DNA of 64,000 nucleotides from a phage. Below, piece by piece: positions 1-63,580 of the stretch (positions are counted from its first letter, which is position 1; the number at the start of each line of letters is the position of its first letter). Location: sequence record OZ413489.1, one strand, 5' to 3'. The notes under the pieces are model-generated. The model was not told the origin of the DNA, did not search any database, and saw only the letters and a list, made by a program, of their open reading frames with translations. Both the position numbers and the translations under genes were made by a program.

Positions 1-258
1 CTCTGGGATGCCAACCCAGGTCTTAAGGGGCGCAAAGAGGATCTGGAGAAATTCTGGGAAGCAACAGGTAAGAAGTTTATCTACTCTTTTGATGGTCATG
101 CTATCTGGACCCGATCTAAACACTCTTTACTTAATGCATACCAACAAAATGGCGGTGCATCGTTGTGTGACTTAGTTGGAATACTCATGCACCACCAGAT
201 GGTGAAGCGTGGGTGGTACGATGAAGGTGTTCGTCGTATTATTTATTACCATAAATAA
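1..258 (+). CDS. hypothetical protein (5'-truncated at window edge)
   Basis: Open frame 1 from window start to TAA at 256-258; same strand as downstream array. Confidence 0.5.
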   Translation, partial: LWDANPGLKGRKEDLEKFWEATGKKFIYSFDGHAIWTRSKHSLLNAYQQNGGASLCDLVGILMHHQMVKRGWYDEGVRRIIYYHK

Positions 259-282
259 CATTGTGGCTTCATAGAGTAATCT

Positions 283-441
283 ATGTCGAATAACCTCTTT
301 AACTGCGGGAAGCCTAAACCTTATGGCAAGGTAATCCGCAACGAAGCGCTCAAAAGAGCGAACGCTCAGAGGCCATTCCGAAAGGAAGTAGACCAGCAAG
401 TGCGGTCGAAATGGGAGGATTCCTGTGGTTGCTTATCATAG
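283..441 (+). CDS. small Cys-containing hypothetical protein (52 aa)
   Basis: ATG 283, weak RBS; not in ORF track (<60 aa). Confidence 0.25.
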   Translation: MSNNLFNCGKPKPYGKVIRNEALKRANAQRPFRKEVDQQVRSKWEDSCGCLS

Positions 442-525
442 GAATATGAGATGGTCCGATCCTACGTGAAAACGTATGGCTATGCACGTAATGGTGCGGG
501 GTAGCTTAACGACCTACCTGAACTA

Positions 526-17946: not shown

Positions 17947-18210
17947 ATGAAACGTCTTGATCAGCTCAAATTAGTTCAATATATGGCTTATCGTGTTCTT
18001 GAAGTCCAGAAAGGTAGCAAAAAAGAGGTTTGCGAGAAAGCTTATAAGATCTTCACTCGCAAAAAAGATGACTGGATGCTACGCCAGACTAAAAAGGCTG
18101 ACATCTTGGGGTACCTGGAAGAAGAGATCCGCCTTGAAGAGCAAGAAGAGATCCGCCGTAGTGAGGCAGATTATCAGGCAGCTTGGGAAAACTGGATGAG
18201 CAACAAATAA
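17947..18210 (+). CDS. hypothetical protein
   Basis: 87-aa ORF, RBS aagaggtaaa. Confidence 0.6.
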   Translation: MKRLDQLKLVQYMAYRVLEVQKGSKKEVCEKAYKIFTRKKDDWMLRQTKKADILGYLEEEIRLEEQEEIRRSEADYQAAWENWMSNK

Positions 18211-18228
18211 TACAACAAGGTGCACGGT

Positions 18229-18256
18229 CAGGGGCTTAAAGCCCCTTTCTTTTTGT
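18229..18256 (+). terminator. intrinsic terminator closing the + strand block
   Basis: aggggc-ttaaa-gcccct followed by ttctttttg. Confidence 0.65.
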
Positions 18257-18859
18257 CTCCTCTTTTCCTACCACAAATGGCCCCGCCTGGCAAATGGAAT
18301 AATCAACAAGCCAGCAATTAACCCCACTGTACAAACATACATATAAAATAACTATTGCATAATTTTTCATTGTGTGGTAGCAGTGCCATTTTTACACGTT
18401 TTTCCTTCCAAAATTGCACGTAATGCAGCATTTGCACAAAATTTAACCTGATGCATATCTTCAATAGCTTGTCAACAACTAAAAATCTTTATAAGTCATA
18501 CACTTACATAACTACAAAAACGTTTTCTACGTGAAAAATCGAGTATAACTATAGCCGCCAGATCTCAGAATTTACGTACGCTCGCCATTCTATAGCCTGC
18601 TAAGCATTTATTCCAACCATAGAATAACGGAATAGTCAATACCTGCATAAAATAATTATTCGTGTAAACTGCATAACATAAATCGGCCCAGGTGTCAACA
18701 TTTTTCGTAAACAGTCTGGAATTGTCACGTTAGGTTACCATAAGCAGAGAAATCTTTAGTCGTCTAATGTTTACTGTACATTACTATACTGACTGGAATC
18801 ATTAGATGACTAAGAGAAAGATAAGAAATAATTAATAATGTAATTATTTTACCTGTAAC

Positions 18860-19125
18860 AATAAGGCAACTATGCAAACGAATGGCATGGCGCGACGGAG
18901 TCGCGACATAATATAAAAGCAGTAACCATCACCCCCGTGATAGTTTGTCTGCAAACTATTAATCAGATCATAGTTGCCTTGTATTTAGTTAATCATGACA
19001 TGACAAGCAAGGCAACTATAGATCTGCTAATAGTTGCCCTGCTTTTATATTATGTCATGCTAATTATAATCAGTGCGATTATTGTCATGTATAATTATTG
19101 TCATGCAAACGAATGGCATGGCTGA
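18860..19125. repeat. array of aaggcaactat motifs in both orientations plus duplicated gcaaacgaatggcatggc
   Basis: Copies near 18863, 18970 (inverted), 19009, 19031 (inverted variant); 18-mer at 18874 and 19106; cgcgac-ggag-tcgcg palindrome. Confidence 0.6.
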
Positions 19126-19132
19126 TTATCGG

Positions 19133-19230
19133 TGTGTAAACAGTCAATCATGTAAATGGTTAGCATGTGAACAATCAGGAATGTAAACAATCCAGTGTGT
19201 AAACTAATAGGTGTGTAAAAGTGTCATGTT
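19133..19230. repeat. iteron-like array of six tgtaaac-type direct repeats
   Basis: gtgtgtaaacag, atgtaaatgg, atgtgaacaa, aatgtaaacaa, gtgtgtaaact, gtgtgtaaaag at 10-20 bp spacing. Confidence 0.55.
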
Positions 19231-19364
19231 GTGTCAGTTAGGTCACATTATGTCAGACAAGTTTTTCTCCTCTTTGTCAAGTGCTGCATGAAAAATTTAC
19301 AAGCTTGTATGGTAGCATTTTTGCGGCCCTGTTTACATTCAGTAATGTATGTATAATCCTTGTT

Positions 19365-19527
19365 GTGTGGGCGTTTAGACGTCTAGACGGTTGGAAGTCC
19401 ACAGGTCAATATCTAATCTATCGGCTGCTAACTATATCCCACACATGTGTGGGCGTTTAGACGTCTAGACGGTTGGAAGTCCACAGGTCAATATCTAATC
19501 TATCGGCTGCTAACTATATCCCACACA
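19365..19527 (+). repeat. perfect tandem duplication of an 81-bp unit (82-bp period)
   Basis: Unit gtgtgggcg...tagacgtcta...cccacaca twice; 7-bp terminal inverted repeat gtgtggg/cccacac; tataat hexamer at 19351-19356. Confidence 0.8.
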
Positions 19528-19789
19528 AATAGTAAGAAATATGATTGTTATATGCGTAAACTGTAACTCATGTTATCAATCCCTGTATGGATCGCCAGTG
19601 GTGCGCATAATAGGTATTATGTTAAATTGCCCGTAATGATAACAGTTCTCACAATGATAGGTATTCTCATTCATCCACACAAAATAGGTTGCAAATGTTG
19701 TGCCACTGTGTGAACGGCCTGGCCTATTAATTTCTCTCACTGCCTCGATATTTGAGAATTGTTATAAGAATGAGAAGTATTCCCATTCC

Positions 19790-20130
19790 GTCCGCCTGGC
19801 AGCACTCCTGTAGGTCCTGCAAGGACTCTAGCTGAAAGCTAGACCCTTCGGGCCTCCCTGTAGGTCAGGTCAAAATCGTGGTAGAATTGGGCCTGTTCAG
19901 ATATTTCTGGCTGACTCTTCAGGTCTGTGTGGGAAAAGCCAACCTCTCCGGCGGGGCAGGGGGTCATGACGGGAAAATTGCAGGTCAATTAAAAAATTTA
20001 CGTGGTGTATGAAGCGCTCTTCAGGTAAGGCATGTATTATGGGATGAAACCCTCTTCAGGCAATGATATTTGTGGGTGTGATATTTGCTGGAAAGCCAGA
20101 TATGACGGGACTCCCGGCGGGGATGGGGTA
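19790..20130. repeat. GC-rich segment with recurring short motifs
   Basis: ctcttcagg x3 (plus one at 20465), ccggcgggg x2, cctgtaggtc x2, atgacggg x2. Confidence 0.55.
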
Positions 20131-20823
20131 GTACAGACAGGGAAAATATGAGAATGTAGTTGGGGAAATTGATCAGACAGGTAGAGTATGGAATATGTTA
20201 CAAGTATGTTAAATATGGAGGTTGAATATCTGTAGGATTTGTGTGTAAAATCAAAGACTTAAGGGGTGTTGTGGTATTTTCTATAAATAATTCAAGTTTA
20301 ATAGGCAATATTTGTCTCTATCCGCTTTGTGTGGTAAACAGATTCAGATTAGATTGGTTTACAAGTGTATACATAATATACAAATTAAAGATACAAGAAA
20401 CCCCCCTCCCCCTTCGGCTACCATTCACCTTTTCCTCTGACTGGTACTTAAACACTTATTCAGACTCTTCAGGTTATCACCCATATATCATATGGCAGTG
20501 ACTGGTGTCCTCCGGCCCCTCTTTCGTCACCCGTCCGCTTCGCCATGCTAATGCCATAGCCAATGGTTCGGTTGTTCACTCTGTTCACTCAGGTGTATCT
20601 CCATACCCCTTCAAACCGAAGAGAACAGAAAACCCGAATTACTCGGTAAAAGAAAAGAGAAGAACTTAATTTTATCAGGATAGGCAAGAATGTCAAGGCA
20701 TGACTGCTCACTAAACAAGCAAACAGTCATGTGTGGAAGGTAAGTGATTGTGGTGGTGGGAAATTTAGTTGAAAGATGTGTTATAGGTGCTCCCAGCACT
20801 TTAGCCGGGTAGCTAATTGTGTG

Positions 20824-21039
20824 TCAGTCCAGTGGTTCATCACCTACTTCACTGAAATCAATGTTCATGGTCTCCTCCCAACCATCAATCTCAGCACCAG
20901 AGTAGAGATCTTTAGGACTTACTCCCAAAGCATCAGCAACAGAGTCCATATTTAACACCTCTGGCAGGTATGATTCATCGAATTCAAGGTAAATCAGGCC
21001 ACGAGTGTTGTCAGCTCCACCAAATATTTCTATCTTCAT
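20824..21039 (-). CDS. hypothetical acidic protein
   Basis: Start at MKIEIF after aggag RBS; last gene of minus block. Confidence 0.5.
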   Translation of the reverse strand: MKIEIFGGADNTRGLIYLEFDESYLPEVLNMDSVADALGVSPKDLYSGAEIDGWEETMNIDFSEVGDEPLD

Positions 21040-21159
21040 GAAATCTCCTCTGGGAATGAGAGTGTGAACAGGGTTTATACGTTCCAATGCGCTGGAATTA
21101 TGCACGTTTGCCTCTTCAGGCCATGCTTCAGCATGAGGAACCTGTGTGGGCTCGGTGCT

Positions 21160-60288: not shown

Positions 60289-60386
60289 AACGGATACTAT
60301 TAACTGTCCGTGATACGGACACTACTGTCCGTCACGCGGACACATCTGCCCGTAATACGGACACTAACTGTCCGTGATACGGACAC
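60289..60386 (+). promoter_or_regulatory. array of four palindromic operators (ctgtccgt-N3-acggacac)
   Basis: Copies at 60304-60322, 60325-60343, 60346-60364, 60368-60386; 21-22 bp centre-to-centre. Confidence 0.7.
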
Positions 60387-60529
60387 ATAAAGAATATAAC
60401 TAAAATAACTAAATAATAAAAAATAAAAGATCTAGTACTTATGGTACTAAGTACATATACTTAACTTATGTAGAATATACTAGATCCTAAGTACCATGTT
60501 TTAAATTTATTACTTACTATGGGCAGTGT

Positions 60530-62767: not shown

Positions 62768-62842
62768 GCCCTGTTAGCTTAGTGGATAAAGCAGCGGCCT
62801 TCTAAGCCGTTGACACTGGTTCGAGTCCAGTACGGGGTGCCA
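62768..62842 (+). tRNA. tRNA-Arg (anticodon UCU)
   Basis: Cloverleaf folded by hand; loop cttctaa; TTCGAGT T-loop; encoded CCA. Confidence 0.75.
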
Positions 62843-62846
62843 AATT

Positions 62847-62933
62847 GGGGAGTTATCCCGTAGAGGTAGCGGTGTAGACTGTAAATCTATTGTCATTGCG
62901 ACTCGGGTGGTTCGACTCCACCACTCCCCACCA
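62847..62933 (+). tRNA. tRNA-Tyr (anticodon GUA), long variable arm
   Basis: Perfect acceptor ggggagt/actcccc; loop ctgtaaa; encoded CCA. Confidence 0.75.
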
Positions 62934-63047
62934 AATTTATATTTTTAGATGCATAAATAATACAGATAATGGCATTGATATTTATCGTCGTTTATACTAG
63001 TCACTAACTGCTCGAAAATCAGTGTCATTATCAGTATAATTTATAAA

Positions 63048-63138
63048 GGAGGGTAGGGAGCAATGGTGCTCAAGCGGTCTTGAAAACCGTCCCGTTGAGG
63101 ATGACTCGATGATGGTTCGATTCCATTACTCTCCGCCA
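63048..63138 (+). tRNA. tRNA-Ser (anticodon UGA), long variable arm
   Basis: Anticodon arm gcggt-cttgaaa-accgt close to E. coli tRNA-Ser(UGA); encoded CCA. Confidence 0.7.
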
Positions 63139-63236
63139 CATTGTTGACCTTGTAATTAAGCGAAAGCCGGAAGCAGAACCGGATTATCAAATGTTACAGT
63201 CGTCATCGCCGACTAGCAACATGGTCAACATGCTGA

Positions 63237-63335
63237 GCTAGGTAAGCCCTTTGGCAAGGGCGAGGATTTTTAATCCTGAAAATAGACGAGGTAGTCGTTG
63301 AATACATAGGTGGTTCGATTCCATCACCTAGCACC
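63237..63335 (+). tRNA. tRNA-like gene with aberrant anticodon arm
   Basis: Acceptor gctaggt/acctagc, D-arm and T-arm fold; anticodon region is either a 5-nt loop or a 4-bp stem with loop tttttaa; 3' end is CC then T. Confidence 0.35.
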
Positions 63336-63340
63336 TTTTT

Positions 63341-63416
63341 GCTGATGTAGCACAATCGGTAGTGCAATTGATTTGTAATCAATAGGTTGTAGGTTCAAAT
63401 CCTGCCATCAGCACCA
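63341..63416 (+). tRNA. tRNA-Thr (anticodon UGU)
   Basis: Perfect acceptor gctgatg/catcagc; loop tttgtaa; encoded CCA. Confidence 0.8.
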
Positions 63417-63417
63417 A

Positions 63418-63492
63418 GGCCCTGTAGCTGGAAGGTTCAAGCAAGCGACTCATAATCGCCAGACGGTGGTTCAATTCCACCCAGGGCCACCA
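63418..63492 (+). tRNA. tRNA-Met (anticodon CAU; could be Ile-lysidine type)
   Basis: Perfect acceptor ggccctg/cagggcc; loop ctcataa; encoded CCA. Confidence 0.75.
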
Positions 63493-63503
63493 AATAGTAA
63501 ATA

Positions 63504-63580
63504 CTCCGCGTAGCTCAGCTTGGTAGAGCGCCTGATTTGGGATCAGGAGGTCGAGTGTTCGAATCACTTCGTGGAGACCA
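63504..63580 (+). tRNA. tRNA-Pro (anticodon UGG)
   Basis: Anticodon arm cctga-tttggga-tcagg; canonical D-arm; encoded CCA. Confidence 0.75.

Follow-up and report, generated by a model that had tools for sequence, protein, structure and literature searches.

A probable genome-terminus region with a predicted 541-bp direct terminal repeat in a Vequintavirus

The 64,000-nucleotide stretch of phage DNA analyzed here (the window; sequence record OZ413489.1) contains a 2.6-kb region, 18211-20823, that is free of conserved open reading frames (ORFs) and lies between two convergent gene blocks, the plus-strand block stopping at 18210 and the minus-strand block at 20824. We find that this region is probably the concatemer-junction, or genome-terminus, region of a Vequintavirus, organized around a predicted direct terminal repeat (DTR) of 541 bp at 19256-19796 that is recognized by homology to the 459-bp ends of relatives. 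The virion chromosome is thus predicted, with good though incomplete confidence, to be linear, to start at 19256 and to end at 19796, with 19256-19796 present at both ends. A preliminary description of the region had left four options standing, namely a replication origin, a packaging site, genome termini or non-coding RNA loci; homology supports termini and a packaging site for the central 541 bp and its immediate flanks, whereas the origin option gained no specific support.

Judged by nucleotide similarity, the window is the genome of a Vequintavirus (an rV5-like coliphage). The 2.6-kb region matches 122 phage records at ~85-97% identity, Vequintavirus being given in every record that has a taxonomy line, and sensitive blastn with the region returned no match outside Vequintavirus. 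Nor is a host origin of the 2.6 kb indicated, as none of 5,426 complete E. coli genomes matches it. The remainder of the window fits this assignment: it encodes ribonucleotide reductases, ThyX, ligases, a tRNA cluster and a group I intron, with the nucleotide-metabolism enzymes as the products of the largest ORFs in the 64 kb. Nineteen records labeled 'Campylobacter phage' (MG0656xx), some of them flagged UNVERIFIED, are Vequintavirus sequences 86-94% identical to this coliphage region and are probably mislabeled or contaminant assemblies. In rV5 the same locus is found at 104014-106601 (99% of the region matched, 87.9% identity), where it was drawn as a 'non-coding' box by the rV5 authors (Kropinski 2013) and is called a 'wasteland with no apparent genes' in a phage-annotation guide (Turner 2021). 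The alignments described below comprise 15 relatives, of which 11 GenBank records and 2 IMG/VR contigs carry the locus as a single piece, while the loci of Gotham and EdH4 were each rebuilt from the two record ends before alignment.

The placement of the repeat rests on relatives whose records preserve both ends. Gotham has an annotated repeat_region at 1-459 and 136567-137025, the two copies of which we verified to be identical, and the ends of the EdH4 record also carry identical 459-bp copies (verified); position 1 of both records maps to 19796 of the window and the last base to 19256. Terminal redundancies of 458 bp have been reported for EdH4 and HdK5 (Korf et al. 2019), and the repeat sequence in the window is 92-97% identical to the DTRs of EdH4, HdK5 and Gotham, with the same two boundaries. 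Several database records break inside the region, at two positions only, and at least 10 start or end exactly at the equivalents of 19256 or 19796. With the initial 108 bp of the repeat as query, HdK5, YN3, bov10K2, bov22_2, Pr121LW, EcoIv14a_Aya and ECP2303 proved to be anchored at these boundaries, and 7 records contained the segment twice; bov11CS3, bov25_3 and ECP2309 are further records anchored in this way. Because the same two boundaries recur across several laboratories, they are unlikely to be arbitrary assembly overlaps, which would vary in position. Breakpoints in sequence conservation coincide with both boundaries, as the iterons of the left flank stop ~6 nt before 19256 and an indel hot-spot starts 12 nt after 19796. 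About 100 database entries have an arbitrary opening point and contain no second copy of the repeat. A possible cut-site motif common to both boundaries, ATTnnGTC, was dropped as too short to carry meaning.

The two gene blocks seem to converge because assembly collapsed both copies of the repeat and joined the ends. In the linear genome both blocks are transcribed outwards, each towards a physical end, so that the convergent hub of the preliminary description is accurate for the assembly and is in part a consequence of a linear DTR genome having been assembled as a circle. The repeat measures 541 bp here and 459 bp in relatives because of a private, perfect tandem duplication (2.0 copies, plus strand, 19364-19527) with units at 19364-19445 and 19446-19527; its unit is 82 bp and not 81 bp as first described. 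The unit is bounded by an 8-bp inverted repeat, TGTGTGGG...CCCACACA, and the duplication junction is a 16-bp perfect palindrome with no microhomology. The duplication is absent from all 15 aligned relatives, and a contiguous junction was found in none of the best 15 of 74 records matching a junction-spanning query. Either it arose recently in this isolate or it is an assembly artefact. The latter explanation, which had been raised for the repeats of the region at large, applies at most to this duplication, given that the region itself is reproduced in the 122 phage records.

In a T7-type scheme each concatemer junction carries one copy of the repeat, terminase cuts the junction, and the repeat is duplicated by synthesis. 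At such junctions, short repeat arrays and pac elements reportedly lie beside a short DTR. If the present phage follows this scheme, replication would yield genome concatemers with one DTR copy per junction, terminase would recognize cis elements in the unique DNA beside the repeat and cut at both boundaries, and DNA synthesis would then duplicate the repeat as in the T7 model. The recognition element would be the array that abuts the left cut, in which TGTRAAC iterons are followed by ~10-bp TGTCA repeats, a putative counterpart of lambda cosB or of T7/T3 pac. In lambda, cosB contains three 16-bp R sites for the small terminase subunit beside the nicking site.

The class I iterons of this array occupy 19127-19221 (plus strand) as 5-7 copies of a TGTRAAC core with a 15-16-bp period, the TGTRAAC copies being placed at 19133-19220. 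All four occurrences of GTGTGTAAA in the window fall within the region. Class II short repeats follow at 19222-19255 (plus strand), where four copies of (T/G)GTCA, spaced every 9-10 bp, reach the left cut site. This cut is predicted between 19255 and 19256 (...ATTATGTCA|GACAAG), such that the repeated short sites, TGTRAAC and then TGTCA, immediately abut it and end at 19255; conservation is regained ~6 nt ahead of the cut. No other segment of the region varies as much as the iteron array, with its 58-75% identity in divergent relatives, a core-motif count of 2 to 8 and an interval length of 129-215 bp across the compared phages, and up to about 8-11 copies in relatives. By analogy with the lambda and T7 systems, we propose the combined iteron and TGTCA array (19127-19255) as the best candidate for a small-terminase recognition site. 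Its fast copy-number evolution, together with the genus-specific motifs found in the related Klebsiella phage KPP-1 (see below), fits a recognition site that co-evolves with its binding protein.

The region is non-coding, as no ORF within it is preserved in relatives with third-position bias. We checked the survival of 38 ORFs of at least 25 aa inside the region in the 15 aligned relatives and found none of at least 40 aa intact in more than 13 of the 15, in line with the initial claim of a 2.6-kb ORF-free hub and with the expectation that homologs hold no conserved protein-coding gene here. A 44-aa hydrophobic ORF (18236-18370, minus strand) is intact in two of the 15 relatives and an 86-aa ORF (20241-20501, plus strand) in none; both were rejected as small proteins, being broken in nearly all relatives. 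The short ORFs that do survive sit in near-invariant DNA, with few substitutions and no codon-position bias. Curated records leave the stretch empty, and automated pipelines fill it with mutually inconsistent ORFs of 30-60 aa. A scan of the region for tRNAs and transfer-messenger RNAs found none.

The plus-strand block is closed by an intrinsic terminator at 18230-18256, consisting of the hairpin AGGGGCTTAAAGCCCCT and a T-run, which is also annotated in Alma, Gotham, EdH4 and Murica. The last gene of this block (17947-18210) varies, in that some relatives have this 264-nt gene and others the 420-nt rV5 ORF 164, while rV5_ev156 has both; the border is a gene-exchange hot-spot. The 264-nt gene is mis-annotated as 'DNA translocase FtsK' in several records.

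Between the terminator and the iterons lies an AT-rich left arm (18257-18855) that has no conserved ORF, is 89-97% identical among relatives and has the lowest GC content of the window (0.382). It is followed by an imperfect palindrome system of ~190 bp (18863-19056) composed of four AAGGCAACTAT half-sites, three exact and one with a single mismatch, at 18863 (plus), 18970 (minus), 19009 (plus) and 19030 (minus), and of 18-nt perfect inverted arms at 18905-18922 and 19039-19056. Across the whole window AAGGCAACTAT has 9 matches at up to one mismatch against 1.6 expected, a number reached by none of 100 shuffles. Folded as single-stranded DNA, the system gives -60.4 kcal/mol (z = -8.3) on either strand, and this equality indicates an inverted repeat at the DNA level, not an RNA. 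Perfect 20-bp direct repeats, ATGCAAACGAATGGCATGGC, bracket the palindrome at 18872-18891 and 19103-19122. In phage FV3 one copy of the 20-bp repeat is kept (FV3 1041-1060) and exactly the 231 bp between repeats is missing, as expected from recombination or slippage between the direct repeats. Since FV3 is viable, the AAGGCAACTAT palindrome is dispensable and accessory, which argues against its being an origin or an essential packaging site.

On the other side of the repeat, a 50-nt cassette of three GC hairpins (19808-19857, plus strand) begins 12 nt past the right DTR boundary and is flanked by the direct repeat TCC(C)TGTAGGTC. It lies in the indel hot-spot, where relatives have the same cassette, other GC hairpin cassettes or none (gap fraction 0.33-0.54), and its UUCG- and GAAA-type loops read correctly on the plus strand only. 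Beyond the cassette are two diverged copies of a module, GGNTGA-CTCTTCAGG-TGTGGG-AAAGCCA-CTCCCGGCGGGGnnGGGG-GGGAAAAT, at 19908-20150 (plus strand; local alignment score 21.5, z = 7.1 against shuffles), with G-run motifs at 19953-19963 and 20119-20128. The GC-rich motifs include CCGGCGGGGnnGGGG twice, CAGGTCAA four times and CTGTAGG three times, CCGGCGGGGnnGGGG also forming part of the duplicated module. All four repeat systems of the preliminary description, namely a motif array on both strands, the iterons, the tandem duplication and these GC-rich motifs, are present and exceed chance.

The CTCTTCAGG box occurs four times in the region, at 19915, 20017, 20052 and 20465, the fourth box spanning 20465-20473 on the plus strand. 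Its cores are essentially invariant in 16 phages, with one copy changed in each of two relatives, and the adjacent bases vary. The CTCTTCAGG boxes and G-run modules are further candidate protein-binding sites. Three of the four G4+N1-2G4+ motifs in the 64 kb fall in 19953-20412, and an AT-rich 250 bp (20130-20390) has G-run motifs to either side of it, on opposite strands. Just outside the region there is a fifth CTCTTCAGG box at 21112-21120 (plus strand), between the first small genes of the minus-strand block.

The most conserved block of the neighborhood is the non-coding segment 20391-20790. Fourteen of the 15 relatives match it at 96-100% identity, and the divergent L009 at 93%. Among 200-bp windows from 16 to 22.6 kb, its interval 20400-20599 ranks first or joint first in all five relatives that have long flanks; in L009 it scores 0.98 versus 0.71-0.90 in adjacent genes. 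Inside the block are a C6TC5 motif (G5AG6 on the minus strand) at 20401-20412 and the only strong sigma-70 promoter of the region, TTGACA-16-(TG)TAAAAT, at 20696-20669 (minus strand; 11 of 12 positions matched and an extended -10), which points leftwards to the DTR and the terminus. Across the 15 relatives the promoter shows a footprint of 0 differences in the 12 hexamer columns versus 8 in the 16-nt spacer. A small hairpin with a T-run lies downstream on the same strand at 20646-20624. The conserved promoter is predicted to make a minus-strand transcript running towards the terminus.

These elements also bear on a replication origin, in which an initiator would bind at the iterons and at the AAGGCAACTAT palindrome, AT-rich DNA would melt, and the 20696 promoter and G-run motifs would supply an R-loop primer. 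Such an origin is compatible with the terminus reading, and an iteron array and large palindrome are present, as are the GC minimum in the left arm, the opposite-strand G-run motifs around 20130-20390, and a footprinted promoter whose transcript reaches G5AG6 and then a T-rich tract ~265 nt downstream. We nonetheless consider an origin unlikely. The whole palindrome system is missing in FV3, DnaA boxes are not clustered (one site with one mismatch in the region), no initiator gene is adjacent, and the GC-skew turn coincides with the change in gene strand, as the rV5 authors also concluded for their phage. Moreover, the 15-16-bp spacing and rapid turnover of the iterons, which make up the least conserved segment, are atypical of origin iterons.

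It is similarly doubtful that the region is a non-coding RNA locus, or a pair of loci, producing a minus-strand transcript of the 20696 promoter and, from within the repeat, a Y-shaped plus-strand RNA of 82 nt. The former might be a ~35-nt CU-rich small RNA ending at the 20646-20624 hairpin, or a ~265-nt read-through product, and such RNAs might have roles in regulation or anti-defence. The promoter with its invariant hexamers and variable spacer speaks for this explanation, as does the location of the neighborhood's most conserved, non-coding DNA in the 250 bp downstream of it. The plus-strand-only loops of the hairpin cassette add to this, and so does the 82-nt unit, which as plus-strand RNA folds at -26.1 kcal/mol (z = -3.2) with its minimum free energy structure equal to the centroid. 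A 3-bp mini-hairpin in this unit appears as UGG/CCA, UGG/CCG, UGG/CUG and CAG/CUG among 10 distinct sequences, a series in which two pairs have double changes; this covariation is not significant, as 64-170 of 500 shuffles reach the observed values, and the other predicted pairs of the unit are broken without compensation. Scans of IMG/VR and of metagenomes for additional covariation sequences contributed only 2 and 4 loci.

Other results weigh against RNA more broadly. Rfam 15 gave nothing on the region at gathering score, and the sole match at E ≤ 5 was a chance microRNA (E = 2.6). The 278-nt minus-strand RNA shows no excess folding (z = -0.47), nor does any sliding window across 19900-20700 (z about 0 to +1.7), and a structured RNA in the conserved block was accordingly rejected. 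The non-coding RNA option of the preliminary description is thus left with a footprinted promoter and a weak covariation signal, set against the missing Rfam match and the mostly ordinary folding. A precedent exists in the repeat-expanding pseudo-ToxI of the rV5-like phage phiTE, although that element (L028 3215-3273) is outside the analogous gap; it lies beside tRNA genes, between co-directional genes, and was rejected as a positional homologue.

A more elaborate proposal, which we hold to be quite improbable, is that the ORF-free arms encode a two-part, terminus-proximal RNA system rather than passive spacer. One part may be a sigma-70-driven minus-strand transcript that runs through the most conserved 270 bp and ends at the G5AG6-U tract, and the other may be the 82-nt Y-shaped RNA of the terminal repeat, tandemly amplified in this isolate. 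If true, such RNAs could serve as R-loop primers of replication or as early anti-defence decoys, the decoy idea being modeled on the expansion of pseudo-ToxI repeats in phiTE.

Several points count against a DTR-type terminus. The ends of this phage are placed by comparison with relatives rather than observed, and the terminase genes are situated outside the 64-kb window. The iterons evolve fast, and their 15-16-bp period does not equal one helical repeat; the conserved block 20391-20790 sits 600-1000 bp from the cut sites and is unexplained by the packaging model. In addition, rV5, PVP-SE1 and phiTE were regarded as circularly permuted in earlier descriptions, and for one Vequintavirus (BpE1AUH) a paper of 2026 gives headful packaging as the PhageTerm result. 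These last two points favor headful (pac-type) packaging with circular permutation, in which the region would hold a pac site without fixed ends and the 459-bp 'repeats' would be assembly overlaps; the record 241Ecol014PP, with a differently placed ~150-bp overlap that resembles an assembly artefact, can be read in the same way. We judge headful packaging to have little chance of being correct, given that the two boundaries are identical in at least 10 records from several laboratories, that conservation changes abruptly at both, and that KPP-1 has 2x coverage and PhageTerm support for a DTR at the homologous place. It is least credible of all that the region is a functionless spacer of decayed genes and slippage repeats, or in part an assembly artefact, for although its indel-rich segments are bounded by short direct repeats, its 231-bp system is deletable and its private 82-bp duplication may be artefactual, the region is kept in all 122 relatives, exceeds neighboring genes in conservation in parts, has invariant motif cores with variable flanks, and has analogous ORF-free, DTR-bearing counterparts in two other genera.

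A DTR with flanking cis elements is of a well-known kind, and the repeat has already been reported for sister phages; the conceptual reach of the finding is incremental. The link between the rV5 'wasteland' and genome termini, and the map of cut-site elements, do not appear in the literature we consulted. For annotation, a terminal repeat at this position gives the physical start and end of the genome and explains the 'wasteland' as the terminal region of a linear DTR genome. For engineering, it defines testable cis elements: the array of iterons beside the left cut, the CTCTTCAGG boxes and the promoter that faces the terminus. Vequintavirus phages are widely used in E. coli O157 biocontrol and in therapy cocktails, and both rebooting and the design of packaging signals need true ends.

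Elsewhere in the window, a group I catalytic intron at 243-478 (plus strand) is a full-length model match to Rfam RF00028 (64.7 bits). A cluster of seven tRNAs occupies 62768-63580 (plus strand) and includes a 99-nt tRNA at 63237-63335 that is given a four-base anticodon (atcc) by ARAGORN; the Rfam score of this tRNA is only 35.5 bits, and it may contain an intron or be aberrant. Four tandem 21-bp units of ACTGTCCGTGATACGGACACT, each a small palindrome, lie at 60303-60388 and adjoin a switch in strand and GC skew at ~59 kb, an arrangement that looks like an operator or divergent-promoter array.

The closest known counterparts of the predicted repeat are the DTRs of EdH4, HdK5 and Gotham, which are likewise located between two outward-transcribed gene blocks. 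The repeat described here differs in being 82 bp longer and in having its ends deduced from sequence. Published notes on those three DTRs give length only and leave the flanking elements undescribed, and in the rV5 papers the genome was treated as circularly permuted, with no role given to the non-coding box. That this box coincides with the physical ends follows from more recent records together with the present analysis. The resemblance to T7 lies in a DTR of a few hundred bp, in arrays of short repeats in the unique flanks beside the cuts, in a host-type promoter directed towards the end, and in a repeat that must be duplicated during maturation. Unlike T7, the phage is a ~137-kb myovirus of unrelated sequence without phage RNA-polymerase promoters, for which the cutting and duplication steps are extrapolated; both adjacent blocks are transcribed towards the ends, whereas the early genes of T7 read inwards from the left end. 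As with lambda cosB, an array of ~16-bp repeats is directly beside the predicted terminase cut. Lambda, however, has 12-nt cohesive ends in place of a DTR, and the array described here has more and variable copies and no sequence similarity to cosB.

Outside Vequintavirus, the most informative comparison is with Klebsiella phage KPP-1 (Mydovirus, same subfamily), for which a 514-bp DTR is supported by 2x coverage and PhageTerm, and where we find the DTR to sit in a 1.8-kb ORF-poor gap between convergent blocks. The KPP-1 repeat aligns with the present repeat in reverse orientation only (z = 3.9 versus -0.2); the orientation was taken from the repeat itself, as no flanking-gene homology with KPP-1 was found. 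The first ~50 bp of the two repeats are related (CTC..TTGTCAAG..AAATTTACAA), and the KPP-1 PhageTerm boundary falls 2 nt from 19256. Similarity also begins precisely at the 19256 boundary in three KPP-1-type IMG/VR contigs of 146 kb, in which the upstream DNA differs. KPP-1 further resembles the present phage in having GGGGGAAGGGGGG (a G5AAG6 motif) on the corresponding side of its repeat, a CTCTTCAGG box, and an AT-rich arm that contains a large inverted repeat with internal palindromic sites. The motifs of that arm are ATGATAA-N-TTATCAT and not AAGGCAACTAT or TGTRAAC, the gap is shorter, and there is no overall nucleotide similarity outside the repeat. As a separate observation, the unrelated IMG/VR phage contigs L064, L065 and L081 (140-165 kb) have TTTGTCAAG-N-AAATTTACAAG in common with the start of the Vequintavirus/Mydovirus repeat; this element may be promoter-like or terminal in nature and widespread. 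In the phi92-like phage BME3, a DTR of 342 bp lies within ~3 kb that contain no ORFs. We conclude from KPP-1 and BME3 that the wider rV5-like group has in common a terminal region that lacks ORFs and carries a short DTR.

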